DNA of 64,000 bases, taken from an uncultured Corynebacterium sp. (GTDB lineage: Bacteria; Actinomycetota; Actinomycetes; Mycobacteriales; Mycobacteriaceae). A model generated the notes under the pieces. It ran no database searches. It was given only the letters and a program-made list of their open reading frames with translations, and had not been told where the DNA came from. Location of the stretch: NCBI RefSeq assembly GCF_947253065.1, contig NZ_CAMXWS010000003.1, positions 19,954-83,953 of the forward strand, read 5' to 3'. A program made the translations under genes and the position numbers. Positions 4,107 to 60,560 of this stretch are shown piece after piece. The number at the start of each line of letters is the position of its first letter. Position 1 is the stretch's first letter.

Positions 4107-4463
4107 ATGTCAGAAACCGTGACCTCGACCGCGCGCGTGCGCCTGGGCAGCCCAGCACGTTACGGCAAGCTGTTGGCTCATCACTTTGAGCAGCTTATCG
4201 ACGCCACATGGGACCCCGAGACTGCCAAAGGGTCTTTCACTTTTTCCGCCGAGGACTCGCAGAATGAGTCATGTGATTCGGCGACATGCGATGTGATCGC
4301 CACTGAGGGCGTGCTCATGCTGAGCGTTGAAGGTCCAGAGCCCGCCGTGGAAAACGCGGAACGTCAGATGGCCTCACAGTTGATTCATCTAGCTCAAGAT
4401 GAAGACGTGGTTGTCGAATTCGCCCGTGGTGATAAGGGCTTGGTGCGGTTTACCAGCGCTTAA
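4107..4463 (+). CDS. hypothetical protein
   Basis: 118-aa ORF. Contains one copy of the 11-mer repeat, in frame as LID. Confidence 0.4.
   Translation: MSETVTSTARVRLGSPARYGKLLAHHFEQLIDATWDPETAKGSFTFSAEDSQNESCDSATCDVIATEGVLMLSVEGPEPAVENAERQMASQLIHLAQDEDVVVEFARGDKGLVRFTSA
4193..4203 (+). repeat. 11-mer GCTTATCGACG copy
   Basis: Exact match. In frame as Q-L-I-D-A in the hypothetical gene at 4107..4463. Confidence 0.9.
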
Positions 4464-5089
4464 ATTGCAGCAGGGGTGAGTTCTACCTCATCTGCCCATG
4501 TCAGGTCGATGCCCTGCGCGCGGAGCCATTCCATCGCATCATCATCGTGGCGAGTAATGCCTTCAACAGCATTGAGCGTTGCATCAATCGCGCGCTCGGC
4601 TTCTTCAGCCGTGATGAAACCAGCTGAGGTGGCTGCAGCCAGTTCGTCGATATCGAGAACATCGACTGCCTCTCCCCGAACGGCCACGAGGTCGACGTAC
4701 AAGTCGCGTGTGCGCCAGACTTCGCCCTCGACATCGATATCAGCGATATCAAAGTAGTAGTCCTGCTCCACCTCGACGCCTTCGCGGAAGTGGAAGATAT
4801 TGGCACGCAGATTCAGCTTGGGCAGCAGCCAGCTTTCCAGGTAGCCGAATTTCGGGTGATTCGCGCCGCGTGCCATGTAAAGGCCGAAGTCTGTGACCCG
4901 GAAGGTATCCACATCACGCAGGTACCCCTTCGGGTCGGTGTTGATCTTTGATGTCGTGTCAAAGGTTTCCTGCTTGACTGGGTGAAGGTCAGGCGCGAAT
5001 TCGCTGTTGGCTTTATAGGCGCTGTTGCCGCTGCCTACCGTGGCTGCTGTCATGTCCTTCACCTGCCGTTCGTCTTTATGCGCATTCAT
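4460..5089 (-). CDS. DUF402-family protein
   Basis: C-terminal acidic beta-rich region resembles DUF402. The assignment is tentative. Confidence 0.45.
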   Translation of the reverse strand: MNAHKDERQVKDMTAATVGSGNSAYKANSEFAPDLHPVKQETFDTTSKINTDPKGYLRDVDTFRVTDFGLYMARGANHPKFGYLESWLLPKLNLRANIFHFREGVEVEQDYYFDIADIDVEGEVWRTRDLYVDLVAVRGEAVDVLDIDELAAATSAGFITAEEAERAIDATLNAVEGITRHDDDAMEWLRAQGIDLTWADEVELTPAAI

Positions 5090-5097
5090 GGGCTTAT

Positions 5098-5796
5098 CTA
5101 CTTCACCGTCACGCTCAGTGCCGTCGGGGCGAAACCGCAGCTGCGGCCGCCGGTATTGACAGCTCCAGAGACAACCGCCAATACCGTGCCGGAGCCCGTA
5201 TTGGCCACGTTGGAGAGCGTTGCCGGTCCTGTTGGGTTTATCCCTTTGTTATGAAGCGGCGTTACACCACTGCGAAGATTGGACAGGTTGATCCAGTGGA
5301 CACGCATCGCTCCTTGCTGGGCGGATGCAGGTTTTGTACCCAAAGCTGTGAATACAAAAGTGGTCTGTCCAGCCTTCGGTGCTGGCACTGGAATGCGGGC
5401 AGGACCGGGCACGGCAAGGAAAGATCCGGTGGAGTGCATGCCTGCGCCCATGCAGTTGGGAGAGACTGTCGGCCAGAATCCTTGGCGGAAAGCTGGGCCG
5501 TTTTGGGGGAGTCCCGGGCCACCTGGCTCGCCGGTTCCAGCGGCGAAGGCCAGGCCGTTTAGCAGGGCATCGCGCACCGGAGCGGGCACGCCGGGATGAT
5601 TGGCGAAGTCCTTGACGGCGCGTTGCACCTGCGGGGTTGGGCGGCCGAGCGGGTCCACGACCTGAGAGGGTAGGGAGGACAGTGAAGATGGGGTCGGCGC
5701 TGCCTGTGCAGGGGAGATGGCACTGGGTCCGAGAATCGTGCCAGCGGTGAGGGCGACAGACAAAGCAAGCGTGCGTGCAGCGGTTGCTATCTTCAA
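5098..5796 (-). CDS. secreted hypothetical protein
   Basis: N-terminal signal peptide MKIATAARTLALSVALTAG... followed by a Pro-rich region. Confidence 0.5.
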   Translation of the reverse strand: MKIATAARTLALSVALTAGTILGPSAISPAQAAPTPSSLSSLPSQVVDPLGRPTPQVQRAVKDFANHPGVPAPVRDALLNGLAFAAGTGEPGGPGLPQNGPAFRQGFWPTVSPNCMGAGMHSTGSFLAVPGPARIPVPAPKAGQTTFVFTALGTKPASAQQGAMRVHWINLSNLRSGVTPLHNKGINPTGPATLSNVANTGSGTVLAVVSGAVNTGGRSCGFAPTALSVTVK

Positions 5797-6031: not shown

Positions 6032-7948
6032 GTGTCGCACCCTGAGTTCCGTAACGTCGCCATCGTCGCCCACGTCGACCATGGCAAGACCACTCTCGTC
6101 AACGGCATGCTGGAGCAGTCCGGCGCGTTCGGCGATCACGGCGAGGTTGCAGACCGCGTCATGGATTCCGGTGATCTCGAATCCGAACGTGGCATCACGA
6201 TTTTGGCGAAGAACACGTCCATTCGTCGTAAAGGCCTCGGCAAAGATGGCCGCGACCTGGTGATCAACGTCATTGACACCCCGGGCCACGCGGACTTCGG
6301 CGGAGAGGTCGAGCGCGGCCTTTCCATGGTCGACGGCGTTGTCCTGCTTATCGACGCCTCCGAAGGCCCCCTTCCGCAGACCCGCTTCGTGCTGGGCAAG
6401 GCGCTCGAGGCGAAGAAGCCTGTGATCATCTGCGTGAACAAGACCGACCGTCCGGACGCGCGTATCGACGAAGTCGTAGAAGAAGCCCAGGACCTGCTCC
6501 TCGAGCTCGGCGCCGGCCTTGAGGATCCGGAAGCTGCCGAAGCGGCTGAGAACCTGCTTGAGCTGCCGGTGCTCTACGCCTCCGGTCGTGCTGGCCGCGC
6601 TTCGTTCAACAACCCTGGCAACGGCGAGCTGCCGGACAACGATGATCTTCAGCCGCTCTTCGACGTCATCTACGACGTCCTCCCAGAGCCGTCCGCAGAT
6701 ATCGACGCACCTTTCCAGGCCCAGGTCACCAACTTGGACTCCTCTTCCTTCCTCGGTCGTATCGCGCTTGTTCGTGTGCACCGCGGCTCGGTAAAGAAGG
6801 GCGACCAGGTCGCTTGGGTGCACTACGACGCGGAAGGCGAGCAGCACGTCAAGAACGTCAAGATCGCTGAGCTGCTGGTCACCGAGGGGCTCGAGCGCGT
6901 TCCGGCGCAGGGCGAAGTCGTAGCAGGCGATATCGCTGCTGTCTCCGGTATCGACGAGATCATGATCGGTGACACCCTTTGTGATCCGGAGAATGTCGAG
7001 CCGCGCCCGCGCATCAAGATTGATGACCCGGCGATCTCCATGACCATCGGTGTGAACACCTCTCCGATGGCTGGTCGTGGTGGTGGCGACAAGCTCACTG
7101 CCCGCATGGTCAAGGCGCGTCTGGATCAGGAGCTGATCGGTAATGTCTCCATCAAGGTGCTGCCGACCGAACGTCCGGATGCTTGGGAGGTTCAGGGCCG
7201 TGGCGAGATGGCGCTGACCGTCCTGATTGAAACGATGCGTCGTGAAGGCTTTGAGCTGACCGTGGGCAAGCCGCAGGTTGTTACTAAGGAGATCGACGGC
7301 AAGATCCACGAGCCGTACGACCACATGGTCATTGACACTCCGTCTGAGTACCAGGGCGCTGTCACCCAGCTGATGGCCAGCCGCAAGGGGCAGATGACCG
7401 CGATGGGCAATGCAGGCTCCGGCGACTGGGTGCGCATGGAATTTGATGTTCCGTCCCGTGGCCTCATCGGCTTCCGCACGACCTTCCTTACTGAGACTCA
7501 TGGTGCTGGTATTGCTAACTCGTACTCCATCGAGCACCGCCCGTGGGCGGGTGAGATCAAGGGTCGTCCGACGGGCTCGCTTGTCGCTGACCGTTCCGGC
7601 CAGGTCACCTCGTACGCGCTGATGCAGCTCGCTGACCGCGGCAACTTCTTCGTGGAACCCGGCGCTGAGACCTACGAGGGCATGGTCGTTGGTGCGAATA
7701 ACCGTGATGAGGACATGGACGTCAACATCACTAAGGAGAAGAAGCTGACCAATATGCGTGCTGCTTCGGCGGACACTACGGTCACCTTGGCGAAGGCGAA
7801 GTCTCTGTCACTCGATGAGGCCATCGAATTCTGTGATGACGACGAATGCGTTGAGGTCACCCCGGACGTCATGCGCGTGCGCAAGGTCATCCTGAATGCC
7901 ACCGAGCGTGGTCGTGCTCGTTCCCGCGCTAAGCAGATGAACAAGTAG
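6032..7948 (+). CDS. typA: translational GTPase TypA/BipA
   Basis: GTG start preceded by AAAGGAG. G1 motif AHVDHGKTT, DTPGHADF, NKTD. Full-length (638 aa) EF-G-like architecture. Confidence 0.95.
   Translation: MSHPEFRNVAIVAHVDHGKTTLVNGMLEQSGAFGDHGEVADRVMDSGDLESERGITILAKNTSIRRKGLGKDGRDLVINVIDTPGHADFGGEVERGLSMVDGVVLLIDASEGPLPQTRFVLGKALEAKKPVIICVNKTDRPDARIDEVVEEAQDLLLELGAGLEDPEAAEAAENLLELPVLYASGRAGRASFNNPGNGELPDNDDLQPLFDVIYDVLPEPSADIDAPFQAQVTNLDSSSFLGRIALVRVHRGSVKKGDQVAWVHYDAEGEQHVKNVKIAELLVTEGLERVPAQGEVVAGDIAAVSGIDEIMIGDTLCDPENVEPRPRIKIDDPAISMTIGVNTSPMAGRGGGDKLTARMVKARLDQELIGNVSIKVLPTERPDAWEVQGRGEMALTVLIETMRREGFELTVGKPQVVTKEIDGKIHEPYDHMVIDTPSEYQGAVTQLMASRKGQMTAMGNAGSGDWVRMEFDVPSRGLIGFRTTFLTETHGAGIANSYSIEHRPWAGEIKGRPTGSLVADRSGQVTSYALMQLADRGNFFVEPGAETYEGMVVGANNRDEDMDVNITKEKKLTNMRAASADTTVTLAKAKSLSLDEAIEFCDDDECVEVTPDVMRVRKVILNATERGRARSRAKQMNK
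6346..6356 (+). repeat. 11-mer GCTTATCGACG copy
   Basis: Exact match. L-L-I-D-A in typA. Confidence 0.9.
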
Positions 7949-7985: not shown

Positions 7986-9698
7986 TTGACCCTCATGCGC
8001 ACCCCCAGTTGCAGAACTACTACGGCGAGGATTCTCGCCCCGGTTCTTGCTCTGGGGGTGCTGTCGTCTTTGGTGTCGTGTTCCGCGCAACCTGGCCCGC
8101 CGCCAATCGTTGAGGAAGAAGAACAGGAAACAACGGAGACGACCAGCACGACGGAGCAGCCCGCGACACGCTCTCAAGCGAATGTGGGCATCCAGCCACT
8201 GCGCAATGGTCTCAACCCGCACCTTGTGGCTGATGAGAATTCCACGGTGCGTGATGTTGCTGAGTTGACGCTGCCGAGCGCATTTCACGCCGGCAAGCTC
8301 AATACCGACTTGTTGGAATCAGCCGAGGTGCTCGATGCTGAAGACAACGAGGTGCCAGACGCGCCTGCAATGACAGTGCGGTATGTGATCAACCCTGCTG
8401 CGCAGTGGTCAGACGGCAGCCCGATCACGGGCGCGGATTTCGTGTACCTGTGGCGCGGAATCACCTCCACGCCCGGCGCAGTCGCCCCGGCTGGGTACCG
8501 CGCGATTCGGGATGTGCAGGTCACCGGCGGTGGCGGCAAGACCGTGGATGTGCTTTTCGACGAACAGGTGGATACCTGGCCCGACCTTTTCAATTACCTC
8601 CTGCCTTCGCATTTGCTCGACTCGCGTGCAGAGGACTTTGCCACGGCGTTGCGTGACACGATCCCAGCGTCGGCAGGCCGCTACATGGTGGACAATGTCG
8701 ACCGTGGCGCAGGCACGATCGACCTGAACCGAAATGACAGGTTCTGGGGGGCGAACCCGGCAGGCATTGATCTGCTCACGCTCAATTTCGTGCGGTCCAC
8801 GGATCTGACAGCTGATCGGTTGCGCTCAGGGCAGCTCGCTTTCGTCGATCATGTACCGGGGGAGACCTCGTGGGATACATATTCGCTAATCCCAGATGCG
8901 CAGGTCCGGCTCGAGGAAGGTCCGCGTGAGCTCGGCCTCACCTTGTCGGTTGATTCGCCGATTCTTCAGTCGCGCGATGTGCGTACGGAACTCGCATCGC
9001 TAATCGACGTCCCACTCATCGCCCGCATCGCCGCCGGTCGCACCCGCGATCTGGCAGAGGCAGAACCCACCCGTCAGGTCGAGCGTGAGCCTGATGCTCT
9101 GCGCGCTGCAGCAGGGAAGTCCCGTCCATTGCGGATTGCTGCTGATCCCCGCGATGATCAAGCTATGCCAGCAGCTCGAGCACTGGTCGATGTTCTCGTA
9201 CGCGCCGGGGTGTCAGCAGAAGCGGTCGCAGCGGATGCCACCGAGACTGCACAGCGCCTGCGCGCCGGCACTGTCGATGCAACGGTCGCATGGTCGCTCG
9301 ACGGTGGTCCCGGGGTGTGGGCTAGCAAGGTGCAGTGCCCACCAGCGGACGTTGAATACGTCTCGGGGAATTTGAGTGGGTTGTGTTTGGCGTCGACACG
9401 CATGCTTTCCGGCGACATCCTGTCCGGAGAGATTCCTGCAGACCGCGCCAGCGATGTCGTTTCTGACACCTTGCGACGCGAAGCTGTCTGGGTGCCTTTA
9501 TTGTCCGAGCGTCGCATCATGGTCTTAGGCAATGGCATAGAAGGACCCGCCGCACAGCTCGATGAGTGGGGCAGTGGGGTGGCAGGAGCAGCCCAGTGGA
9601 AGCTAGCGGAACCAGTCAATACGGAAGGTGAATCCATAGATGAACGCAGCGAGCCCGATCCCGAACCTGATTCCGATGCCGAGCTCCGAGCCGGCTAA
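7986..9698 (+). CDS. ABC transporter substrate-binding lipoprotein, family 5 (peptide/nickel type)
   Basis: Lipobox LVSCS after a signal peptide. WSDGSPITGADF motif typical of SBP_bac_5. Confidence 0.65.
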   Translation: MTLMRTPSCRTTTARILAPVLALGVLSSLVSCSAQPGPPPIVEEEEQETTETTSTTEQPATRSQANVGIQPLRNGLNPHLVADENSTVRDVAELTLPSAFHAGKLNTDLLESAEVLDAEDNEVPDAPAMTVRYVINPAAQWSDGSPITGADFVYLWRGITSTPGAVAPAGYRAIRDVQVTGGGGKTVDVLFDEQVDTWPDLFNYLLPSHLLDSRAEDFATALRDTIPASAGRYMVDNVDRGAGTIDLNRNDRFWGANPAGIDLLTLNFVRSTDLTADRLRSGQLAFVDHVPGETSWDTYSLIPDAQVRLEEGPRELGLTLSVDSPILQSRDVRTELASLIDVPLIARIAAGRTRDLAEAEPTRQVEREPDALRAAAGKSRPLRIAADPRDDQAMPAARALVDVLVRAGVSAEAVAADATETAQRLRAGTVDATVAWSLDGGPGVWASKVQCPPADVEYVSGNLSGLCLASTRMLSGDILSGEIPADRASDVVSDTLRREAVWVPLLSERRIMVLGNGIEGPAAQLDEWGSGVAGAAQWKLAEPVNTEGESIDERSEPDPEPDSDAELRAG

Positions 9699-10581
9699 GC
9701 GCGCAGTGAAAGGCCCGCGTGATCTCGTTGGTCTGCGCGTCGTAGCAGTGCACGCGCACCCGGATGACGAGTCCATTTCCACCGGCGGTGCTCTCGCACA
9801 CCTCGCGCGACGTGGCGCCGACGTCCTCGTTGTCACCTGCACACTTGGCGAGGAAGGCGAAGTGATCGGGGAGACCTACCAAGGCCTCGTCAACGATGCC
9901 GCTGACCAACTCGGTGGCTTCCGCATCCATGAGCTCTCCCGTGCATTGGAGATCCTCGGCGTCCGCGGCGCATTCCTTGGCGGTGCTGGCCGTTACCGGG
10001 ACTCCGGCATGGCGGGATCACCTGCAAGCCGCAACCCTCGCGCCTTCGTCAACTCCGGCCAGCAAGCCGTCAACGACCTCGTAGACATCTTCGAACGCGA
10101 AGCACCACACCTCGTGCTCACCTATGACGAAAACGGTGGTTACGGCCACCCTGACCACATTCGTGCTCACGAAATCACGCACCTCGCAGCACAACAGGTC
10201 GAGATCCCACGCATCCTCTGGGCAGCGCGCCTGCGTGAAGAACTCGAGGCCAATTTCGCGGAAGACATCCCCGAAGGATGGACCCGCCCCGCGCCGGGCG
10301 AGCTCGACGCTGTCGACACCACCGACACGTGGGTTGAGATGGATGATGTTGTCTACGCTGCCAAAGCCGAAGCCATGAAAGCTCACGCCACGCAGATTTG
10401 GCTTGCCGACGCCTCCGTCACCCTCACCAACCCCCACGCCGCCATCGCTCGCGGCCCAGTGACCACCTATGCATTGTCCAACCTGATCGCCCAACCGATC
10501 ATTCGTCGCGAGCACTACCTACTTGGCGCTGGCATGCCTCTTGAGCACGGCGCAGATATCACCAGCGGCCTGGACTTCTAA
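9640..10581 (+). CDS. mshB: N-acetyl-1-D-myo-inositol-2-amino-2-deoxy-alpha-D-glucopyranoside deacetylase (LmbE family)
   Basis: AHPDDE zinc-binding motif and HPDH motif. The start is uncertain: Met13 at 9676 is an alternative. The ORF overlaps the upstream ORF. Confidence 0.8.
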   Translation: MNAASPIPNLIPMPSSEPAKRAVKGPRDLVGLRVVAVHAHPDDESISTGGALAHLARRGADVLVVTCTLGEEGEVIGETYQGLVNDAADQLGGFRIHELSRALEILGVRGAFLGGAGRYRDSGMAGSPASRNPRAFVNSGQQAVNDLVDIFEREAPHLVLTYDENGGYGHPDHIRAHEITHLAAQQVEIPRILWAARLREELEANFAEDIPEGWTRPAPGELDAVDTTDTWVEMDDVVYAAKAEAMKAHATQIWLADASVTLTNPHAAIARGPVTTYALSNLIAQPIIRREHYLLGAGMPLEHGADITSGLDF

Positions 10582-10582: not shown

Positions 10583-10948
10583 ATGCAGCCCGCTGTCCGG
10601 ACAGACTTCACCCGTGGGGAAGCCCGCTCAGGTTTAGCCTGGCTCTCAGTGGGGGCTGGGCTGTCAGGGCTGGTGGAGGTGGCGTCGATAAGCACGCTCT
10701 ACGGCGTAGTTTCGATTCTTGCCGCAGCGGGCCTTGGGGTTGTCTTCACCCGCACCGCGCTGCTCTGGGTGCGCGGACGCACATGGCTGGCGCTTATTCC
10801 ACTTTGGGCGTGGATCTGCGCATTCATCATGCTCGCGGTCGGTCCGGAAGTCACTGCAACGATCGTCGCCGAAAATAAGATTCGCTGCGCTCTGCTGCTC
10901 GCCGCCGCCGTAGCTGGGGCCGTGTGGCCCATTGCGATGCGGAAGTGA
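10583..10948 (+). CDS. hypothetical membrane protein
   Basis: ATG immediately after the mshB stop. Three predicted transmembrane helices. Confidence 0.45.
   Translation: MQPAVRTDFTRGEARSGLAWLSVGAGLSGLVEVASISTLYGVVSILAAAGLGVVFTRTALLWVRGRTWLALIPLWAWICAFIMLAVGPEVTATIVAENKIRCALLLAAAVAGAVWPIAMRK
10683..10693 (-). repeat. 11-mer copy (reverse orientation)
   Basis: Plus strand shows CGTCGATAAGC. Read as A-S-I-S using the rare ATA codon. Confidence 0.9.
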
Positions 10949-12503: not shown

Positions 12504-13112
12504 GTGACCCAACACGATATAGCTGAAGACGCGGCGTCCGATGTCGCCCGCTCGGCGCCACCTGCGCAGCAAAAGAGAGGCAGCACCGCCTTGCGCGTGA
12601 TGAACGGTGCCCGCGAATTCATCAAATTCGGCATCGTCGGCGGTTCCGGAGTGCTGGTCAACCTCGCGGTTGTCTACCTCGTGACGAAGGCACTCGAGCT
12701 CGGCTGGAACATCCACGAAAATGAAGTCTTCTTCAACCTGTTCGGCACTCGCTGGAATGTCCGCTGGTACCACGTGATCATGACCATCGCGTTCATCACC
12801 GCGAACACGTGGAATTACCAGCTCAATCGGTCGTGGACCTTCCGCAACGTGCCGAAGCGGTCGTGGCTGCGCGGGTACTTCCCGTTCCTCGCCACGGGCA
12901 TTGTCGCGTTCGTTGTCAGCCAGATCGTCGCGACGTTGCTGATGAATCCGACGACGCCCGTCGCGCTTCCCGACGACATCTTCGACGACTCCACCGGACT
13001 TCGCACCAAGTTCTACTGGGCAGCTGGCATATCGACGCTGGTGGCCATGCCCGTCAACTTCATCATCAACAAGCTTTGGACGTTCAGTCGCCCGAAAAAG
13101 CCGCGGTCCTAG
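12504..13112 (+). CDS. GtrA-family membrane protein
   Basis: FIKFGIVGGSGVLVNL N-terminal motif and four transmembrane helices of GtrA-like proteins. Confidence 0.65.
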   Translation: MTQHDIAEDAASDVARSAPPAQQKRGSTALRVMNGAREFIKFGIVGGSGVLVNLAVVYLVTKALELGWNIHENEVFFNLFGTRWNVRWYHVIMTIAFITANTWNYQLNRSWTFRNVPKRSWLRGYFPFLATGIVAFVVSQIVATLLMNPTTPVALPDDIFDDSTGLRTKFYWAAGISTLVAMPVNFIINKLWTFSRPKKPRS

Positions 13113-26973: not shown

Positions 26974-27302
26974 TTGCCGTGCCGAAGTTTGATTCGATCG
27001 AGCACCTCAATTTCGAAGCTGTCGCCGCGCTTATCGACGACGAACTCACCCCCACCGCCTACCACCGCGCCCAGAATCATCTGGCGCAGTGTGAGGATTG
27101 TCGTCGTGAAGTAGCGCAGCAGCGCGCCGCGTCTGAGGCCGTGCGGGAACACAACACCGATGGTTGCTTGCGCGCACCACGGTCGCTGGTGGAGAAATTG
27201 GCGCACCTGGACGATCAGGCGCCGCTGACTCGAGTTGCCGCAGAGAATTCGGGTGGAAAGTGGCCTATTTCGTGGAGTCGTTTGCGTAACGGGCTAAGGT
27301 GA
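26970..27302 (+). CDS. cseE: anti-sigma-E factor (zinc-finger anti-sigma, RseA/CseE-like)
   Basis: HxxxCxxC motif (HLAQCEDC). 4-bp overlap with the sigE stop. Confidence 0.7.
27029..27039 (+). repeat. 11-mer GCTTATCGACG copy
   Basis: Exact match. A-L-I-D-D in cseE. Confidence 0.9.
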
Positions 27303-38937: not shown

Positions 38938-38948
38938 GCTTATCGACG
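38938..38948 (+). repeat. 11-mer GCTTATCGACG copy (intergenic)
   Basis: Exact match, 72 bp upstream of the ABC exporter start. Confidence 0.9.
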
Positions 38949-38989
38949 ATCGCCCCTTCACTTCCTTCATTTTGCCCGTAAGAGTCCTG

Positions 38990-50613: not shown

Positions 50614-52536
50614 GTGATGAATATTGATGAGAACGCCGCTGAAGAACAGCAGGCGAATACCCCGGTTGAGCCGGAAGAAAATGGGAATGGGTCCGCAGAT
50701 CAAGGTGCGGAAGATGTGAAGGAAAATGGGGGCGACGGGGCGTCGGCAAGCGATGGCTTTGATGCGCTCGGCCTGCCTGATGATGTGCTGGCCGCGATCC
50801 GGAAGGTCGGCTTTGAGGAGCCGTCGCCGATTCAGGCGCAGACGATTCCGCTGCTGATGGAAGGCCGCGACGTGGTCGGCCTGGCGCAGACGGGTACGGG
50901 CAAGACCGCGGCGTTCGCGCTGCCGGTGCTGTCGCAGATTGATCGGAAGGCGCGTCACCCGCAGGCGCTTGTGCTTGCGCCGACGCGTGAGCTGGCACTG
51001 CAGGTGTCCGATTCCTTCCAGTCTTTTGCTGATCACCTGGGCGGCATTTCGGTGCTGCCGATCTACGGCGGTCAGGCATACGGCATTCAGCTGTCGGGTC
51101 TGCGCCGTGGCGCACAGATCATCGTGGGTACTCCGGGACGTGTGATTGACCACCTGGAGAAGGGCTCGCTGGATATCTCCAACCTGCGCTTCCTCGTGCT
51201 CGATGAGGCGGACGAGATGCTGAACATGGGCTTCCAGGAAGACGTTGAGCGCATCCTGGAGGACACCCCGGACGAGAAGCAGGTCGCGCTGTTTTCGGCG
51301 ACGATGCCAAATGGCATCCGCCGGATTTCGAAGCAGTACCTGGACAACCCGGCTGAAGTCACGGTCAAGTCCGAGACGCGCACGAACACGAATATCACGC
51401 AGCGCTACCTGTTCACCGCGCACCGCAACAAGCTCGATGCGATCACGCGCATCCTTGAGGTCACCGAATTCGACGGCATGATCGTTTTCGTGCGCACCAA
51501 GCACGAAACGGAAGAGGTCGCGGAGAAGCTCCGTGCGCGCGGATTCTCCGCCGCCGCGATCAATGGTGATATTGCACAGCAGCAGCGTGAGCGCACGGTT
51601 GATCAGCTTCGCGACGGGCGCTTGGACATCCTCGTCGCCACCGACGTCGCCGCGCGTGGTCTGGATGTGGAGCGCATCTCGCACGTGCTCAACTACGACA
51701 TTCCGAATGACACGGAAAGCTACGTCCACCGCATTGGCCGCACCGGTCGTGCTGGACGTACTGGTGAGGCGATCCTCTTTGTCACCCCGCGTGAGCGCCG
51801 CATGCTCCGCTCGATTGAGAAGGTCACTGGCGCGAAGATCGAAGAGATGGACCTGCCCACCGTGGACGAGGTCAATGTCTCCCGTATGGCTAAGTTCTCC
51901 GACTCGATCACCGAGTCGCTGGAAAACGACCAGATGGATCTCTTCCGTGGCCTGGTGCGCACCTACTCCGCTGACCACGATGTGCCGATGGAAGACATCG
52001 CAGCAGCGCTCGCCGCACAGACTTCTGGTGATGAGTTCCTGATGAAGGAGCCGCCGAAGGACAAGCGCGACCGCCGTGATCGTGACCGTTGGGATCGCGA
52101 TGACCGTCGTGGACGCGGCCGCGGCCGTGATGATCGTGGTGGTCGTAGCCGTTTCCACAACGACGACCCGAATTTTGATACCTACCGTCTGGACGTGGGC
52201 AAGCGTCAGCACGTCCGCCCGGGTGCGATCGTCGGTGCGCTCGCCAACGAAGGTGGCCTGACCAACCGCGACTTCGGTCGCATCACCATCGGTGGTGACT
52301 TCACGCTCGTGGAGCTGCCGAAGAACCTCGACCGGGCTGTCCTCGACCGCCTGTCGGACACGCGCATTTCCGGTCAGCTGATCAATATTCAGCGTGATCA
52401 CGGCGCACCGCCGCGCAATCGTGGCGGCCGCGGTGGTTACCGCCGGCGTGACGACGATCGCGATCGCGGCTACCGCGGTGGCCGCGGTGGGCGCGGTGGA
52501 CGTGGCGGTCGGGGCAACCGCAATTGGCGTGACTAA
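50614..52536 (+). CDS. deaD: DEAD-box ATP-dependent RNA helicase (DeaD/CshA-like) with an RG-rich tail
   Basis: Q-motif, GTGKT, DEAD, SAT and HRIGRTGRAG motifs. DbpA-like C-terminus and RGG/RD repeats. Confidence 0.9.
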   Translation: MMNIDENAAEEQQANTPVEPEENGNGSADQGAEDVKENGGDGASASDGFDALGLPDDVLAAIRKVGFEEPSPIQAQTIPLLMEGRDVVGLAQTGTGKTAAFALPVLSQIDRKARHPQALVLAPTRELALQVSDSFQSFADHLGGISVLPIYGGQAYGIQLSGLRRGAQIIVGTPGRVIDHLEKGSLDISNLRFLVLDEADEMLNMGFQEDVERILEDTPDEKQVALFSATMPNGIRRISKQYLDNPAEVTVKSETRTNTNITQRYLFTAHRNKLDAITRILEVTEFDGMIVFVRTKHETEEVAEKLRARGFSAAAINGDIAQQQRERTVDQLRDGRLDILVATDVAARGLDVERISHVLNYDIPNDTESYVHRIGRTGRAGRTGEAILFVTPRERRMLRSIEKVTGAKIEEMDLPTVDEVNVSRMAKFSDSITESLENDQMDLFRGLVRTYSADHDVPMEDIAAALAAQTSGDEFLMKEPPKDKRDRRDRDRWDRDDRRGRGRGRDDRGGRSRFHNDDPNFDTYRLDVGKRQHVRPGAIVGALANEGGLTNRDFGRITIGGDFTLVELPKNLDRAVLDRLSDTRISGQLINIQRDHGAPPRNRGGRGGYRRRDDDRDRGYRGGRGGRGGRGGRGNRNWRD

Positions 52537-54169: not shown

Positions 54170-54823
54170 TTACTCTACGGAAAACACTGGAATTGTCCCA
54201 TCTGGGGAGTGCCCGCTGATCAAACCACGAATGCCCGAACATTGTCGACGCATCGCGCGCACATCAGGTTTGGGCAGCGCAAGCCCATATTTTCTGGCCA
54301 CCTCTCCGATTCTTTGGGCATAGGCGCAGCGTGCCGACGCATCCATTGGCACCCACTCGCTGGGCAAGGCATCTGATTTGGATTGGTTAGCGGCCCGTGA
54401 GGTAACCACAAGGTTCAACGGATCGTTGGCAAAAGCGAGACGCTTCTTATCCGGCCAGCGGAATGCCCCGATATCCCAGGCGGCGCGGAGGGGAATGACA
54501 TGGTCGATTTCAACATCGTCGGGTTGAAGGAGCTCGCCGGTGTATGGGTCAGTGAAAGGCGTGACCGTGTTCATGTCCCACTGGCGGTAGGGCACAGCGC
54601 AGGAGTCGACCTGCCATGCGTCTGCCATGACGGCCTCACGCGTCGTGCAGCCGCTGCGGTGGGTGGCCCAACCAGCGCCGAAGACACTGCGTTCGTATCC
54701 GAGGACGGTGTGGCGGGGGTGGGGGCTTGAGGGGACGTCGATAAGCGAATGCGGAGTGGGGAACGGGACGACCGCGATGGTGGCGATGATGAGGGCGCAG
54801 AGATACGCGCGGAATGGTGTCAT
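54170..54823 (-). CDS. secreted DUF1524/HNH-like nuclease-domain protein
   Basis: N-terminal signal/TM segment. DHVIPLRAAW...NDPLNLVVTSRAANQSKSD resembles the DUF1524 His-Me finger nuclease domain. Confidence 0.5.
   Translation of the reverse strand: MTPFRAYLCALIIATIAVVPFPTPHSLIDVPSSPHPRHTVLGYERSVFGAGWATHRSGCTTREAVMADAWQVDSCAVPYRQWDMNTVTPFTDPYTGELLQPDDVEIDHVIPLRAAWDIGAFRWPDKKRLAFANDPLNLVVTSRAANQSKSDALPSEWVPMDASARCAYAQRIGEVARKYGLALPKPDVRAMRRQCSGIRGLISGHSPDGTIPVFSVE
54736..54746 (-). repeat. 11-mer copy (reverse orientation)
   Basis: The coding strand of the DUF1524 gene reads S-L-I-D-V. Confidence 0.9.
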
Positions 54824-56654: not shown

Positions 56655-59600
56655 ATGCCTAAATTCCTTCTGCACGGCCTGTGGCTGCCCGCCTCAGGTC
56701 TCAACCTGTGGGTTGAGCGTGTAGATGGGCACAAGATTTTGATGCCTTCGCAGGTTCCTGCGGGCACGTTCCCGCCGATGGTGGAGAACATGCTGCAGGA
56801 TTCGCAGTTCCGTCGCCGCGGGGCGATCACGCTGCAGACTCCGAAGGGCAAGCAGGTGCAGTTGCGTGCTCCGACGGCAGCATTTTCGCCGGAGGAAACG
56901 GTGGCTTTTTTGAGCCAGGTTTCGCTTCTCGACGATGCGTCGCCCGCCGCCACCACCGCTCAACGCCAGTCGATCGCACCGGATCTGTACTGGATCATTC
57001 GCCTCTATGTGGGCCTGACTCGGTTTGTGCGTGCGGGCAGGGTGAGCATTCGTGTGCGTCCATCCGATGGTGCCTGGTACCCGGAGTGGCAATTGGGCAC
57101 GGGCCTGGAAGAGCGTGGCTGGTTGGCATCGATGATTGCGGCCGCGCCGGGAGTGATTACGGCGAATAACGTGAACCTGGGCGAGGATGTGGCCACGACA
57201 TTGGTGCACTGGATTGCTAGTGCACACCTGTCGCATTTGAAGGACCAGACGCGGGCATACCCGTGGCATGATTTTTCGGACGCACTGCTGAATTCTCAGC
57301 CTTTGCGCCGTGGCGGTTCGAGTGTGTCGAAGCAGATCGCGCATTGGAATGGCTCGATCACTGCAGTGAATGTGCAGTTGGTCTTCATCGTCGAGGAGCC
57401 AACGGATCCGGTGCAGCAGGCGCACGAGAATGATTCAGCCGGTGCGATGCTCAGTGAGCTCGCCGATATCACTGCCACCAGTACTGGCACGGATACGAAT
57501 GCCTCGATGGATCCGGCGAAGGTGCAGTGGCCGGTGCGTGCCCAGGTGCGTGCGGGTACGGATGCGCCGCGGCCGATTCATCTTGATGAGGTCGATGTGG
57601 CCACGTTGTCCAGTTTGCGTGATCAGCTGCGCCGCGCGGTTGAGGTCACTGGCTTGGTGGATCCGGAGAAGCATCCGCGCATGCCTTTTACCCCGATGAC
57701 GGACAGGGACGGGGATTGGGATGCGTACTTGAGCACGGATGAGCTGATGGAGCTCGTGGCCAAGGATGCGACGCGGCTGCAGATGAAGGGCATCACAGTG
57801 ATGCTGCCGCGCTCCTGGCAGCGCATGGAGACTACGGCGAAGCTCAAGGTCAGCGCCAATGATGATGACGGTGCTGATGCCGCGACGACGCGTCGTTTCG
57901 GCGTGGATCAGCTGATTTCTTATGACTGGTCACTCTCTGTCGGGGATACGGAGCTAACGGCAGAAGAAATGCGCCAGCTGGTCAATTCCAAGTCAGGGCT
58001 GATCCAGCTGCGTGGCCAGTGGGTGATGGCGGATTCGCAGTCTCTGGCGAGGTCACGCAAATACATCGAGTCCTTGTCGGAGAAGGAAGTCGAAGAGGGC
58101 GTCATCACTGCCGAGGAGCTGCGCCAGCTGGCGTTGGAGTCTGCGGCGGAGGCTGAAGGCGGCGCGCTGGAGATCGCCGGTGATGTGGATTCACCGGCGT
58201 GGATGGACACTTTGATTGGCGGGACCGACCGCCCGGCCCCGGACCGTCAGCCGATTCCGGATACGGTGACTGCGGAGCTGCGTGATTATCAGCGCCGTGG
58301 TGTGGATTGGCTGTATTTCATGTCGCGGAACCAGCTCGGTGCGGTGCTCGCCGATGACATGGGGCTGGGCAAGACGTTGCAGCTGCTCACGCTTCTGGCC
58401 ATCGAGGCGGAGAATAAGGAGAAGACGGGTCCCACGTTGGTTGTCGCACCGACTTCTGTGGTGGGCAACTGGGCACGCGAGGCGCAGCGCTTCGTGCCCA
58501 ACATGCGGGTTGGTGTTCACCATGGGCAAGGGCGTCTCAAAGGCGATGCGCTGGTCGAGGAGATCGGGCAGTTGGATCTGCTGATCACCTCCTACGGCGT
58601 GGTCACCCGGGATTACAAGCAATTGGGGCTCATTGAATGGGACCATGTGGTGCTTGATGAGGCGCAGGCAATCAAGAATGCGTCGACGCGGGCGTCGCAA
58701 AGCGTGCGTGCAATTGATGCGCGCCACCGCATCGCGCTGACGGGTACTCCTGTGGAGAATCGTCTGGCGGAGCTGCGCAGCCTCCTTGATTTCGTGAACC
58801 CCGGCATTTTGGGGACGCAGAGCTTCTTCCGCAATCACTTCGCCAAAATCATTGAGACGCGACGTGATGAGCAGCTGGCTGATGAGATGCAGGATCGCCT
58901 CCAGCGTCTTACCGCGCCATTTGTGTTGCGCAGGTTGAAGACGGATCCGACGATTATTTCGGACCTGCCGGAGAAAAGCGAGCAAGTGGTCACCGTAGAT
59001 ATGACGGATGAGCAGGCCGCGCTGTACACCGCGCTCGTGGAATCGATGAAAAAGGAGCTGGAGAAGCGCACAGGTATGTCGCGCAAGGGGCTCGTGCTTT
59101 CCACGATCACGCGCATCAAACAGATCTGTAACCACCCCGCGCACTTCCTCGGCGATGGGTCTGCGGTGACCATCAAGGGCAAGCACCGCTCCGGCAAGGT
59201 GGCAAAGCTTTTGCAGCTTATCGACGAAGCCGTGGCCACCGACCAGCGCGTCCTCGTTTTCACTCAGTACAAGGCTTTCGGCGATATTCTCCAGCCGTAT
59301 TTGAGCGACCGGCTGGGCCAGGACATTCCGTTCCTGCATGGCGGAGTGTCCAAAACTGCGCGTGATGCGATGGTGGATGAATTCCAAAATCCGAATGGTC
59401 CGCGCGCCATGATTCTGTCGCTGCGTGCCGGCGGCACGGGCCTGAACCTGACTGCGGCATCGATGGTGATCCACATGGATCGGTGGTGGAACCCCGCGGT
59501 GGAGAACCAGGCCACTGACCGTGCGTACCGCATCGGGCAGGCCAAGAATGTTCAGGTGTACAAGATGATCACCCGCGGGACGATGGAGGAGTCCATCCAA

Positions 59601-59720
59601 GACATTCTGGACGGCAAGCTCCAGCTCGCCGGCGCAGTGGTCGGTGAAGGCGAAGGCTGGATCACCGAGCTGGACACCGATGATCTGACCACGCTGATGA
59701 GCTACCGGACGAGCGAGTAG
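56655..59720 (+). CDS. helZ: SNF2-family helicase (HelZ-like)
   Basis: Start taken at MPKFLLHGLW. SNF2 N-terminal ATPase motifs (LADDMGLGKTLQ, DEAQ) and a helicase C domain. Confidence 0.85.
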   Translation: MPKFLLHGLWLPASGLNLWVERVDGHKILMPSQVPAGTFPPMVENMLQDSQFRRRGAITLQTPKGKQVQLRAPTAAFSPEETVAFLSQVSLLDDASPAATTAQRQSIAPDLYWIIRLYVGLTRFVRAGRVSIRVRPSDGAWYPEWQLGTGLEERGWLASMIAAAPGVITANNVNLGEDVATTLVHWIASAHLSHLKDQTRAYPWHDFSDALLNSQPLRRGGSSVSKQIAHWNGSITAVNVQLVFIVEEPTDPVQQAHENDSAGAMLSELADITATSTGTDTNASMDPAKVQWPVRAQVRAGTDAPRPIHLDEVDVATLSSLRDQLRRAVEVTGLVDPEKHPRMPFTPMTDRDGDWDAYLSTDELMELVAKDATRLQMKGITVMLPRSWQRMETTAKLKVSANDDDGADAATTRRFGVDQLISYDWSLSVGDTELTAEEMRQLVNSKSGLIQLRGQWVMADSQSLARSRKYIESLSEKEVEEGVITAEELRQLALESAAEAEGGALEIAGDVDSPAWMDTLIGGTDRPAPDRQPIPDTVTAELRDYQRRGVDWLYFMSRNQLGAVLADDMGLGKTLQLLTLLAIEAENKEKTGPTLVVAPTSVVGNWAREAQRFVPNMRVGVHHGQGRLKGDALVEEIGQLDLLITSYGVVTRDYKQLGLIEWDHVVLDEAQAIKNASTRASQSVRAIDARHRIALTGTPVENRLAELRSLLDFVNPGILGTQSFFRNHFAKIIETRRDEQLADEMQDRLQRLTAPFVLRRLKTDPTIISDLPEKSEQVVTVDMTDEQAALYTALVESMKKELEKRTGMSRKGLVLSTITRIKQICNHPAHFLGDGSAVTIKGKHRSGKVAKLLQLIDEAVATDQRVLVFTQYKAFGDILQPYLSDRLGQDIPFLHGGVSKTARDAMVDEFQNPNGPRAMILSLRAGGTGLNLTAASMVIHMDRWWNPAVENQATDRAYRIGQAKNVQVYKMITRGTMEESIQDILDGKLQLAGAVVGEGEGWITELDTDDLTTLMSYRTSE
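59216..59226 (+). repeat. 11-mer GCTTATCGACG copy
   Basis: Exact match. Q-L-I-D-E in helZ. Confidence 0.9.
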
Positions 59721-59735
59721 GAGGGAGGAGCACGC

Positions 59736-60560
59736 ATGCCACGGCCCCAATTAGACAATGTCACCTGGGTGAATTTCGGTTCGCGCGAGAAGGTGAACAG
59801 CGCTGCGGAGACCACCACGCCGAATGATGCGTCGGAGGAGACTCGCTCGCAGATTCTGCGCTACAACGAAGCCGCCCGGACGATCTACCGCGCGGCCCAG
59901 CAGGGCGCGGACCAAGGCCGGTTCTCCCGTGGCCGAAAATACGCGGAGCAAGGCAATGTGCTTGAGCTCCGCGCAGAAGCCGGTCGCTTCACTGCCACGA
60001 TCGCCGGTTCACAGAACGAACCATTCACCACGCTGATCATCCTCCCGTACCGCGATTCCGGTGCGATCCGCGATGCGCTCGGCATCATGTCGCACAATGC
60101 GAATGCGCTGGCTGAAGTCCGCAACGGCTACATTGGCCGAGAGCTGCTCGATTGTCTGCTGGCCACCGAGGACGAGAAGATCCGCTTCCGCTGCGATTGC
60201 CCGGATGAGACCCGCGTGTGCAAGCACGGGGTCGCAGCCGCACTCAAAGCAGCAGAGCTTATCGACGCCGACCCCACCCTCCTCTTCCGCCTCCGCAACC
60301 TCGACCTGAACACGCTAGAGCGCCAACTCCGTGAATCCGCCGGGGAGCGGGCCATGGAATCTGCCAGGGAAGGCTCTGAATTCTTCTGGGACGGCCACAT
60401 CCTCCCGCACCTGCCCGAGCCGAAGATCGCCCCGATGATTGAGGACTCAGATCTGGACCTTTTGCACAAGGCGATGCAGACCATCTCCTTTACCAATATC
60501 GACCAGCTACGTGCCGTGTCCGATCTGGAAGACCTCTACGACGAACTGACCCGTAGATAA
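59736..60560 (+). CDS. SWIM zinc-finger protein
   Basis: CDCPDETRVCKHGVAAAL matches the CxCxnCxH SWIM finger. Positional partner of HelZ, as for Rv2101/Rv2102. Confidence 0.7.
   Translation: MPRPQLDNVTWVNFGSREKVNSAAETTTPNDASEETRSQILRYNEAARTIYRAAQQGADQGRFSRGRKYAEQGNVLELRAEAGRFTATIAGSQNEPFTTLIILPYRDSGAIRDALGIMSHNANALAEVRNGYIGRELLDCLLATEDEKIRFRCDCPDETRVCKHGVAAALKAAELIDADPTLLFRLRNLDLNTLERQLRESAGERAMESAREGSEFFWDGHILPHLPEPKIAPMIEDSDLDLLHKAMQTISFTNIDQLRAVSDLEDLYDELTRR
60257..60267 (+). repeat. 11-mer GCTTATCGACG copy
   Basis: Exact match. E-L-I-D-A in the SWIM gene. Confidence 0.9.

Follow-up and report, generated by a model that had tools for sequence, protein, structure and literature searches.

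An abundant two-part DNA word in Corynebacterium with features of an uptake sequence

Why does one 11-nt word, GCTTATCGACG, recur throughout a stretch of Corynebacterium DNA? We analysed the window, the whole 64-kb stretch in which the word was noticed, together with one syntenic 20-kb region per species.

Abundance and placement of the word

The window contains 17 exact copies of GCTTATCGACG, nine on the + strand and eight on the - strand, equivalent to one copy per 3.8 kb, whereas 100 dinucleotide-preserving shuffles gave a mean of 0.01. The first-pass annotation had reported this count and both strand totals; they are correct but understate the element. Since the 10-mer core retrieves the same 17 exact matches as the 11-mer, a G follows every copy, as also claimed there. 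Sixteen copies (94%) are genic and one, at 38938, is intergenic, in agreement with the earlier description. However, the genic copies are spread over 14 CDSs and not 15, because gpgS and a fused ABC exporter carry two each. The hypothetical ORF that holds the copy at 10683 is unsupported. Four or five copies are antisense to a real gene.

A codon shuffle that keeps each protein and the codon usage of each gene yielded 0.42 ± 0.65 copies (maximum 4 in 1000) against the 16 observed in CDSs. Of the 22 sites at which the word could be written synonymously, 16 (about three quarters) are occupied, with similar occupancy in sense (12/16, Leu-Ile-Asp) and antisense (4/6, Val-Asp-Lys), so the excess of sense copies is as coding constraint predicts. 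These results uphold the earlier view that the copies lie in preferred frames and that protein conservation does not explain them. Eleven of 18 Leu-Ile-Asp tripeptides are spelled CTT-ATC-GAC, against about 5% expected from codon usage; ATC and GAC are preferred codons, but CTT is little used for Leu (12%). Compared with the same proteins from clades lacking the word, both LID and VDK are about twice as frequent. Strand counts are balanced (9:8, 15:13 and 25:22), and the wide family is spaced slightly more evenly than random (CV 0.72, P=0.012). Within the window, no preferred position of the word in genes was seen, nor any hairpins or inverted partners at the copies. None of the 17 copies forms an inverted-repeat terminator, and an Rfam search of the window gave no matches.

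Core family and C-rich tail

In the window we count 47 members of a family defined by the bipartite core GCTT-N2-CGACG, of which GCTTATCGACG is the most frequent form; about 70% of the members are in sense orientation. The 30 further members vary at positions 5-6, and 'AT' is the preferred N2 spacer in this clade. Every exact copy is followed 3', on the same strand, by a tail of about 35 nt containing 50-64% C and 11-15% G (tail skew 0.35 vs a background of 0.00 ± 0.13, p=9e-12; Table 1). This tail is strictly one-sided and strand-specific: it starts just 3' of the word, ends at about +48, and its signal, weakest next to the word, reaches its maximum between +20 and +40. The first-pass annotation had missed the C-rich tail, the 30 further members and the four or five antisense copies.

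Tails are conserved in composition only, not in sequence, and their skew falls with core quality, better cores having stronger tails (0.35, 0.25 and 0.19). As single-stranded DNA, the motif strand with its tail folds weakly (-3.2 kcal/mol vs a background of -7.1 ± 2.8), and the complement lies above the 99th percentile of background G4Hunter values in 10 of 17 tails. Tail substitutions are directional (G>C 38%, G>T 17%, T>C 15%, G>A 11% and A>C 8%, with the reverse changes at 1-3% each), and G is removed in 66% of changes. The element is a DNA-level two-part signal, formed by the bipartite 11-bp core and a same-strand C-rich, G-poor tail. It arose at its present sites through point substitutions, whichever way it faces relative to the gene, and it changes weakly constrained amino acids.

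Table 1. Exact copies and 19 of the 30 variant members in the window (word plus tail, 48 nt)
Position	Strand	Form	Gene context	Tail skew	Other genomes
4193..4240	+	exact	DUF2218 gene, sense, Leu-Ile-Asp frame	0.10	
6346..6393	+	exact	typA (G-domain LLIDASEGPLPQTRF), sense	0.17	
10646..10693	-	exact	unsupported hypothetical ORF 10583-10948 (+), coding status uncertain	0.35	
19761..19808	-	exact	gpgS, antisense; coding strand Val-Asp-Lys	0.42	orthologues without word: tail about -0.09
20023..20070	+	exact	gpgS, sense	0.38	exact word in 9 species
23491..23538	+	exact	glgA, antisense	0.28	
24973..25020	+	exact, weak tail	glgC, sense	0.20	exact word in 11 species
26214..26261	-	exact	methyltransferase gene 25673-26323, sense	0.40	
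27029..27076	+	exact	zf-HC2 anti-sigma factor gene downstream of sigE, sense	0.40	
31429..31476	-	exact	odhA C-terminus (…LIDEAFA*); tail extends beyond stop codon into non-coding DNA	0.47	
36308..36355	-	exact	fused ABC exporter, sense, Ala-Tyr-Arg-Arg frame	0.40	
37254..37301	-	exact, strongest tail	fused ABC exporter, sense, LID frame	0.60	
38938..38985	+	exact	intergenic, ABC exporter start / upstream gene	0.25	
43448..43495	-	exact	MFS transporter gene, antisense	0.35	
54699..54746	-	exact	GmrSD_C/HNH-domain gene, sense	0.45	
59216..59263	+	exact, weak tail	SNF2-family helicase (helZ), sense	0.17	
60257..60304	+	exact	hypothetical gene 59736-60560, sense	0.50	
1710..1757	+	position-5 variant GCTTGTCGACG		0.10	
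8552..8599	+	position-5 variant GCTTTTCGACG		0.15	
14329..14376	-	position-5 variant GCTTTTCGACG		0.12	
16505..16552	-	position-5 variant GCTTGTCGACG		0.38	exact word (A) in strain L002 and species L006
25782..25829	-	position-5 variant GCTTCTCGACG		0.47	identical in L004 and L005
27549..27596	+	position-5 variant GCTTTTCGACG		0.17	identical in L004, L005 and L006
35463..35510	-	position-5 variant GCTTCTCGACG		0.25	
40746..40793	+	position-5 variant GCTTCTCGACG		0.20	
42639..42686	-	position-5 variant GCTTGTCGACG		0.30	
45410..45457	+	position-5 variant GCTTTTCGACG	nucleoside hydrolase gene, sense	0.33	
56924..56971	+	position-5 variant GCTTCTCGACG		0.25	
2732..2779	-	position-5/6 variant GCTTCACGACG		0.25	
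10401..10448	+	position-5/6 variant GCTTGCCGACG		0.47	
12965..13012	+	position-5/6 variant GCTTCCCGACG		0.23	
17385..17432	+	position-5/6 variant GCTTCCCGACG		0.28	
17499..17546	+	position-5/6 variant GCTTTACGACG		0.33	
21023..21070	+	position-5/6 variant GCTTGACGACG		0.23	
29701..29748	-	position-5/6 variant GCTTGCCGACG		0.38	
50704..50751	-	position-5/6 variant GCTTGCCGACG	DEAD-box helicase gene, antisense	0.40	

Conservation and distribution

Three independent metagenome assemblies contain the same copies. Two sister species share 9/9 and 8/11 copies in identical form, against 0.9 expected, bearing out the DNA-level conservation at orthologous genes that the first-pass annotation had proposed to look for. 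Synonymous sites are 35-39% diverged between species in which the element stays unchanged, and in motif-rich species further away the copies occupy other sites. Orthologous sites that have the word show a tail skew of +0.21 and those that lack it one of -0.04 to -0.06, and no indels or length changes relative to orthologues were found at element sites.

Of 80 Corynebacterium species, most show an enrichment of the word family of about 100-fold or higher. In several whole clades (at least four), as well as in Tsukamurella and Nocardia, the family stands at baseline and is not avoided; this clade-structured absence fits a dispensable factor that has been repeatedly lost. Corynephage BFK20 contains one family member in 43 kb (baseline), and the low-GC restriction-modification (R-M) island contains none. 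Position 5 of the core varies by lineage, forming dialects. Some lineages, C. callunae and C. glucuronolyticum among them, carry the word with no tail, so core and tail are separable.

Comparison with known systems

The Pasteurellaceae USS, a 9-bp core (AAGTGCGGT) with one-sided T-rich tracts (PMC3458573), shares with the element a short core and a one-sided compositional flank. Both occur in either orientation, mainly in genes and in preferred reading frames, and the tripeptides encoded by USS and DUS are likewise about twofold inflated (PMC2817400). In both, copies are conserved in close relatives and found at other sites in distant ones, variants are lineage-specific and recently acquired DNA lacks copies. 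Unlike USS, the present word belongs to an actinobacterium without known competence or uptake bias and has a bipartite core with a free 2-nt spacer. Its flank of about 35 nt is G:C-rich and strand-asymmetric, whereas USS tracts are A/T, easily deformed and helically phased. Inverted-pair terminators are absent, and its genic share contrasts with 65% for USS (PMC2817400). The 10-12-mer DUS of Neisseriaceae, whose receptor is the minor pilin ComP, resemble the 11-nt word in length, in being non-palindromic and in dialects by which related species differ at single positions (PMC3630211). However, DUS are mostly intergenic (35% in ORFs; PMC2817400), often as inverted pairs in terminators, and have no long compositional flank. 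The USS/DUS analogy drawn in the first-pass annotation holds for frame preference, twofold tripeptides, lineage dialects and the one-sided flank, as well as for absence from the R-M island and phage.

Two other comparisons made there fit less well. HIP1 of cyanobacteria (GCGATCGC) is, like the word, very abundant in coding sequence beyond codon usage and lacks strand polarity. It is, however, a perfect palindrome linked to cognate methyltransferases, while the word is non-palindromic and directional with a strand-asymmetric tail, and so is not of HIP1 type. Chi and KOPS/AIMS, the recombination and segregation guide words, share over-representation in the chromosome and are read by translocating enzymes, but their length is 5-8 nt, their enrichment only few-fold and their co-orientation with replication strong. 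The 11-bp length of the word, its enrichment of 100-fold or more and its balanced strands disfavour this class.

Possible mechanisms

Could the pattern be an artefact, whether an assembly error, a watermark written by deliberate synonymous recoding, a bias in codons or peptides, or what is left of small mobile elements? Most copies do read Leu-Ile-Asp, and the word uses the preferred codons ATC and GAC. However, artefact and watermark, both raised in the first-pass annotation, are refuted by the same copies in three assemblies and at orthologous sites of many other named species, by the codon-preserving null, and by the antisense and intergenic copies. The minor codon CTT and the absence of inverted partners, hairpins and length change relative to orthologues also speak against this explanation, to which we give virtually no credence. 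A signal in RNA, the word being a nut/boxA-like protein-binding site in the transcript and the tail a rut site controlling termination of untranslated or antisense transcripts, is very improbable. Rut sites are defined by a C-rich, G-poor and unstructured composition that the tail shares, most of the family is in sense, and the tail of the odhA copy directly follows the stop codon. The sense excess is nevertheless predicted by coding constraint alone, Pfam-backed antisense copies keep full tails (0.28-0.42), the word lies 5' of the C-tract, and in the window there is neither a positional link to gene ends nor an Rfam match. Moreover, it is the word, not the transcript, that sets the direction of the tail, and rut sites have no fixed word beside them.

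A footprint of sequence-directed nicking and repair appears quite unlikely. A nick at or beside the word would be followed by 5' to 3' resynthesis of a 35-40 nt patch by a polymerase or repair pathway that over-inserts C and under-inserts G, while a very-short-patch-like bias in mismatch correction would restore or create the word. The start, strand and end of the tail match the geometry of patch synthesis, composition is conserved without sequence, substitutions are directional, better cores have stronger tails, and core and tail are separable. On the other hand, a G-to-C bias is known from no bacterial polymerase, G is lost to all three bases and C gained from all three, resembling selection on composition, and processivity decay would peak at the word and not at +20 to +40. 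A specificity of 11 bp is unprecedented for VSP-type repair, and selection would be expected to oppose a protein-damaging process, not to let it saturate the writable sites. It is also unlikely, though deserving some weight, that selection keeps the element because a machine that processes chromosomal DNA binds or loads there. Candidates would be a Chi-like word for an end-resection helicase-nuclease (e.g. AdnAB), another translocase or topoisomerase, or a nucleoid protein. The protein would read the core, and the G-poor tail would serve as an unstructured single-stranded landing pad or, alternatively, as a hard-to-unwind stretch with a G4-prone complement that slows an enzyme approaching the word. 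Weak folding, the G4Hunter values, the one-sided, strand-specific tail, conservation far above neutral expectation and the slightly even spacing agree with this, as does the density of the word: Chi occurs in E. coli about once per 4-5 kb, which is similar. Yet strand polarity is absent (25:22, with the + strand presumed leading from synteny with C. glutamicum), while Chi and KOPS are polar, shorter and only few-fold enriched. An essential chromosome function should not vanish from at least four clades, and it is difficult to see how per-site selection could be strong enough to alter amino acids at hundreds of sites.

The most likely mechanism in our analysis, tentatively held, is that biased gene conversion has spread the element as a word resembling uptake sequences. 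A word filled in wherever it is tolerated needs a force that favours it and is blind to transcription; the molecular drive that gives rise to uptake sequences would be the best-documented candidate. Word-bearing fragments would be preferred at a sequence-specific step in the acquisition of DNA, for example by a pilus or a receptor of ComEA type during natural transformation, and recombination would then convert near-cognate sites of the recipient, so that core and flank would accumulate together until stopped by coding constraint. Lineages that lose the receptor would decay to baseline, and the C-rich tail may extend the signal used for recognition or handling, as a counterpart of the T-rich flank of Haemophilus USS. 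Natural transformation dependent on tad/flp exists in Actinobacteria, where tad and comEA/EC loci are common (PMC4322843). The strong G-depletion of one strand points instead to single-strand recognition or a mutational footprint, as a double-strand receptor would not obviously require such asymmetry. To our knowledge, neither natural competence nor sequence-biased uptake has been reported in Corynebacterium, and we know of uptake sequences in two Gram-negative families only. No earlier description of the word was found in the open-access literature searched, which agrees with the first-pass annotation that none exists for Corynebacterineae. If the uptake reading is right, the element would be an uptake-tag-like word in a bacterial group for which such tags have not been described.

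A bipartite word far above chance

The first-pass annotation had counted 17 exact copies of the 11-mer GCTTATCGACG or its reverse complement CGTCGATAAGC in the 64-kb window, nine on the plus strand and eight on the minus strand, and these were confirmed in number, strand and position, at a density of one per 3.8 kb. The 10-mer core gives the same 17 exact matches, so the eleventh base is always G, as had been claimed. Sixteen copies are genic and one is intergenic, in agreement with that annotation; the genic copies, however, lie in 14 genes and not in 15, since gpgS and a fused ABC exporter (1197 residues) hold two copies each.

Dinucleotide-preserving shuffles of the window contained a mean of 0.01 copies against the 17 observed. 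A codon-shuffled null had been proposed for the word; with synonymous codons shuffled within each gene, proteins and per-gene codon usage being kept, 0.42 ± 0.65 copies were expected against 16 observed in coding sequence, and the maximum over 1000 runs was four. The spelling CTT-ATC-GAC was found in 11 of the 18 Leu-Ile-Asp (LID) tripeptides of the window's genes, whereas codon usage predicts about 5%, because CTT accounts for only 12% of Leu codons. The amino-acid-preserving shuffle and the existence of antisense and intergenic copies led us to reject codon or peptide bias, and they bear out the earlier statement that protein conservation cannot explain the copies.

A position-by-position mismatch scan of the window and six close relatives retrieved 49 exact copies and 33 position-5 variants, the latter followed by C-rich tails with a skew, (C-G)/40, of 0.16-0.26. 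Position-6 variants were likewise enriched and likewise tailed, while nearly all other single-mismatch classes held 0-5 copies, the exception being one ordinary codon word. Given this tolerance at positions 5 and 6, the core is bipartite, GCTT-N2-CGACG, with 'AT' favoured. The window contains 47 members of this family, one per 1.4 kb. Their flanks are alike in composition but not in sequence, and a longer conserved repeat was therefore rejected. Exact copies are spaced indistinguishably from random, the wide family slightly more evenly, and no preferred position within genes was found in the window.

The DnaA-box consensus is TTWTNCACA (TTATCCACA). A DnaA box was rejected: TTATCGACG within the word departs from this consensus at two conserved positions, and only two copies of GCTTATCCACG were found. 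The partial resemblances of the word to the DnaA box and to the mycobacterial topoisomerase-I site were set aside. Separately, the one-mismatch variant GCTTATCCAC, present twice in the window, contains TTATCCAC, which resembles the DnaA-box consensus; one of its two copies has a C-rich tail (0.35).

Occupancy of writable sites on both strands

In the real genes of the window, the exact word is present at 16 of the 22 positions where it can be written without changing the protein. On the sense strand, it occupies 11 of 14 LID sites, the single Ala-Tyr-Arg-Arg site and none of one x-Leu-Ser-Thr site; in antisense, it occupies three of four Val-Asp-Lys (VDK) sites and one of two x-Ser-Ile-Ser sites. 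The filling of the LID and VDK frames agrees with the preferred frame previously proposed. The apparent sense excess of 12:4 equals the writable-site ratio of 16:6, and there is thus no preference for the transcribed strand; with equal sense and antisense occupancy, a transcript-level signal was rejected. Strand counts in the window are balanced at 9:8, 15:13 and, for the widest family, 25:22. Local GC skew tracks gene orientation, and the replichore direction is presumed from synteny with C. glutamicum. Inverted partners are missing from all copies, the closest two on opposite strands being 225 bp apart inside gpgS, and Rfam retrieved no known RNA family in the window.

The encoded tripeptides themselves are more frequent where the word is. 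Counted over the same set of orthologous proteins, LID reaches 11-13 occurrences per 10,000 residues in the window's clade versus 6.1 in motif-free clades, and VDK 5-7 versus 2.4.

Five long shadow ORFs (275-634 residues) run antisense to real genes, and none has a Pfam match (see table). Naive longest-ORF calling would assign the wrong strand to several copies. In the fused ABC exporter, two half-transporters are joined in a single ORF, the ABC_membrane and ABC_tran domains each being present twice, and its two exact copies differ in frame (LID and Ala-Tyr-Arg-Arg). Another exact copy, strongly tailed, lies close to the 5' end of a gene whose 217-residue product has GmrSD_C and HNH endonuclease domains and resembles a type IV restriction nuclease.

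Coordinates of features in the window and in compared loci
Feature	Sequence	Coordinates	Strand
Antisense copy in gpgS	window	19798	
Antisense copy in glgA	window	23491	
Antisense copy in MFS transporter gene	window	43485	
Antisense variant in DEAD-box helicase gene	window	50741	
Shadow ORF antisense to gpgS	window	19424-20635	-
Shadow ORF antisense to glgA	window	22976-23803	+
Shadow ORF antisense to MFS transporter gene	window	43075-44451	-
Shadow ORF antisense to nucleoside hydrolase gene	window	44493-45527	-
Shadow ORF antisense to DEAD-box helicase gene	window	50497-52401	-
Position-5 polymorphic site	window	16542-16552	-
Same site in the metagenome strain	L002	20677	
Variant GCTTATCCAC, copy with C-rich tail	window	61399-61408	
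Variant GCTTATCCAC, other copy	window	45598-45607	-
Fused ABC exporter	window	35273-38866	-
R-M pair	window	45802-47847	-
Eco29kI-like GIY-YIG endonuclease	window	45802-46620	-
C-5 cytosine DNA methylase	window	46621-47847	-
Lower-GC stretch	window	44-49 kb	
Span without family members	window	45410-50741	
GmrSD_C/HNH protein	window	54170-54823	-
CCCTTCGCGCTCAC/GTGAGCGCGAAGGG element sites	L038	8115-8590, 12756-13050	
CCCTTCGCGCTCAC/GTGAGCGCGAAGGG element sites	L053	3407-3630, 8383-8630, 12664-12870	

A one-sided C-rich tail

When the 17 copies were aligned on the word, no flank sequence was shared. The 5' flank is ordinary, whereas the 3' flank on the same strand, from about +13 to +48, contains 46-57% C and 13-14% G per 10-nt bin. 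The mean tail skew of the 17 copies is 0.35, compared with 0.00 ± 0.13 across the window (Mann-Whitney p=9e-12), and 13 of them exceed the 96th percentile. Tail orientation tracks the word and not the transcript: the antisense copies assigned through Pfam in gpgS, glgA and the MFS transporter gene, as well as the DEAD-box helicase variant, have tails of 0.28-0.42, and on these grounds a Rho utilisation site was rejected. In odhA, where the copy is C-terminal, the tail extends beyond the stop codon. Many further C-rich tracts in the window have a near-cognate word upstream. Helically phased sub-tracts of the kind seen in the Pasteurellaceae uptake signal sequence (USS) were not found in the tail, which has only a 3-nt (codon) periodicity. 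The motif strand, taken as single-stranded DNA, has weak folding (-3.2 versus a background of -7.1 kcal/mol), and its complement is prone to G4 formation, the mean G4Hunter score being 1.05 where the 99th percentile of the background is 1.03.

Maintenance, turnover and origin of the copies

The locus of the window was found again in ENA metagenome assemblies through its TypA protein (97.5-100% identity), and the same copies are in place in three independent assemblies. Together with copies at the same sites in sister species, this refutes an assembly artefact as well as the engineered watermark that the first-pass annotation had put forward as its alternative. One site is polymorphic within the species at position 5, the window having the G variant GCTTGTCGACG and a 97.5% identical metagenome strain (L002) the exact GCTTATCGACG, as does the species represented by locus L006.

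One genome per species, scanned with GlgA, provided 80 Corynebacterium loci. GCTTATCGACG is also the commonest 11-mer in the loci of the nearest relatives, with nine exact copies in 17.8 kb of Corynebacterium sp. Marseille-P3884 and, in 21 kb each, seven in C. urinipleomorphum, five in Corynebacterium sp. HMSC29G08 and four in C. riegelii. Alignment of orthologues found the word kept at the DNA level: all nine aligned members are identical in Marseille-P3884 (0.9 expected), where third-codon-position identity to the window is 0.65, and eight of 11 in C. urinipleomorphum (0.9 expected). More distant motif-rich species have only one or two sites in common and otherwise copies of their own, so that the word undergoes turnover as well as maintenance.

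Orthologous sites with the exact word have a mean tail skew of +0.21, reaching 0.4-0.5 in the window's clade, versus -0.04 to -0.06 at sites without it. No indels were observed at orthologous positions, which differ by substitutions only and with unchanged length. In gpgS, for example, other species have aagggcgcggccaaggccgaga where the window has aactcccccaccaacccattca, and the protein sequence is altered too. The differences are directional, with G>C at 38%, G>T at 17%, T>C at 15%, G>A at 11% and A>C at 8%, the reverse changes amounting to 1-3% each. In sense copies, the shift affects all three codon positions, third-position C rising from 42% to 72% and G falling from 30% to 9%. The data show that a DNA-level force writes word and tail wherever coding permits, regardless of transcription, and that it is strong enough to alter weakly constrained residues.

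A REP, MITE or in-frame palindromic element was rejected, as the strand folds less than background, the substitutions come without indels and the flanks have no common sequence. A different abundant element was observed in other corynebacteria, namely an inverted-repeat pair, CCCTTCGCGCTCAC and GTGAGCGCGAAGGG, separated by about 34 variable nt. It occurs in sp. J010B-136, sp. L4757, C. aurimucosum, the casei-like group and tuberculostearicum relatives (among the compared loci also in L026, L032 and L022-L024), often in clusters at distances of 125-200 nt and with as many as 14 arm copies in 21 kb, and is not found in the window. It resembles a hairpin family of the REP or MITE type; being an inverted-repeat element of another kind, GTGAGCGCGAAGGG was rejected as a sister dialect of the word.

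Distribution in the genus and beyond

In the GlgA loci, about 60 of the 80 Corynebacterium species have GCTTNTCGACG at a density of 2-8 copies per 10 kb; all loci other than the window cover the same syntenic region, and these densities are therefore regional, with some sites shared by descent. Position 5 varies by lineage, with A in the window's clade, C in C. nasicanis, G or C in C. pollutisoli and T in C. glucuronolyticum. The A dialect and a strong tail mark a single clade (the window, Marseille-P3884, C. urinipleomorphum, MSK041, HMSC29G08 and C. riegelii), beyond which the tail is weaker or absent in motif species. In the C. pacaense locus, GCACCCGCACC occurs 10 times, probably as a tandem repeat.

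Species without copies group into clades on the GlgA tree (casei-like, jeikeium/falsenii and penguin isolates), with C. halotolerans and C. uropygiale as further cases. GCTT forms number 1 versus 23 GCTC/GCTG forms in the zero-copy clades, 281 versus 72 in other motif species and 75 versus 9 in the window's clade. The word is at baseline in the zero-copy clades and not avoided; one copy against about two expected does not support active avoidance. This distribution shows that the writing force depends on a heritable factor that has been lost several times.

Outside the genus, the syntenic region, 41 kb in each case, contained no family member in Tsukamurella and one in Nocardia. The corresponding PLSDB records, both NCTC assemblies, are labelled as plasmids: Tsukamurella tyrosinosolvens 'plasmid 17' (NZ_LR134459.1, 239 kb) carries the core chromosomal genes glgA, glgC, folP, dapE, dapD and gpgS in synteny with the window, and Nocardia farcinica 'plasmid 2' (NZ_LN868939.1, 2.66 Mb) has a glgA match. 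Both look like mislabelled chromosome pieces. Corynephage BFK20 has one member in 43 kb; it also contains 10 copies of a CTAACCAGTTCCAG-like word. Within the window, an R-M pair lies in a stretch of lower GC (55%, as opposed to 60% over the whole window), probably an island gained by horizontal transfer. The span covering it has no family member, albeit in a small sample.

Comparison with known systems and rival explanations

USS and the Neisseriaceae DNA uptake sequence (DUS) have reading-frame preferences and roughly double the tripeptides they encode, are missing from genes without homologues and lie where residues are poorly conserved (Findlay and Redfield 2009, PMC2817400). In the Haemophilus USS, a sharp core precedes tracts that are defined by composition and confined to one side (Mell et al. 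2012, PMC3458573), single-base dialects occur in Neisseriaceae (PMC3630211), and Flp/tad-dependent natural transformation exists in Actinobacteria (PMC4322843). Like them, the Corynebacterium word is short, sharply defined and, in the window, far above chance within one per 1-4 kb, and equally frequent in both orientations whatever transcription does; it sits in preferred frames with its tripeptides roughly doubled, is missing from the R-M island and nearly absent from BFK20 (a small sample), and is common to related species with lineage dialects. The likeness to uptake sequences proposed earlier thus stands for density, orientation, frame, foreign DNA and dialects, but not for inverted terminator pairs, which the window lacks, only one copy being intergenic. 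The HIP1-type option fails: HIP1 is its own reverse complement, whereas GCTTATCGACG is not identical to CGTCGATAAGC and has its tail on one side.

Molecular drive, the process behind uptake sequences, would have exactly the consequences observed, and for this reason we tentatively favour, as the likeliest mechanism, a specificity signal of the uptake type or coupled to recombination in some other way, uptake itself being inferred by analogy. Against it stand the nearly exclusively genic location of the copies, their lack of terminator pairs and the failure of the literature searched to report competence in Corynebacterium. The G:C richness and strand asymmetry of the tail, moreover, suggest the handling of single strands or a mutational footprint. 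A site kept by selection, at which a chromosomal machine would bind or load (similar to Chi but lacking polarity), is an unlikely competitor to an uptake-type signal; as a guide word of the Chi or KOPS type, it would be expected to show strong co-orientation with replication, whereas the strand balance is 25:22 over 64 kb, relative to a leading strand presumed from synteny. It is improbable that the element is the footprint of a nick followed by biased patch repair. An RNA-level, rut-like signal, with antisense occupancy equal to sense, is very improbable, and the presence of the same copies in independent assemblies and sister species leaves an artefact practically no probability.

Rather than an uptake tag, GCTT-N2-CGACG might, as an outside chance, be read by a factor of a sequence-directed DNA-writing or loading system acting about 35 nt downstream on one strand. 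Such a system could be a machine loaded on the unstructured C-rich single strand, or nick-primed, C-biased resynthesis, and the genome around each site would be progressively rewritten, protein sequences included.

Significance

Full-text literature searches retrieved no description of the word, its complement, its dialect variants or an uptake sequence in Corynebacterium; the matches were limited to primers, unrelated papers and the Bxb1 attB site, which contains GCTTGTCGACG by chance. In architecture and in evolutionary behaviour, the element matches an uptake sequence, but in a phylum without a known one. It also has a bipartite core and a type of tail for which we know of no precedent. To our knowledge, uptake sequences are restricted to two Gram-negative families, and we know of no demonstration of sequence-selective natural transformation in mycolic-acid bacteria. 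The clade-structured presence and absence of the word makes the responsible gene findable by phylogenetic profiling.

Corynebacterium comprises relatives of the industrial C. glutamicum, along with numerous species from skin, the urinary tract and clinical samples. Should the word mark DNA for uptake, sequence-selective natural transformation would exist in the genus, the view of gene flow and of the spread of resistance within it would change, and adding the word to DNA might raise transformation. If it is not an uptake tag, some factor would recognise an 11-bp word hundreds of times in each genome and reshape 35 nt of one strand next to it, enough to alter proteins, which would be a new kind of genome-wide signal.
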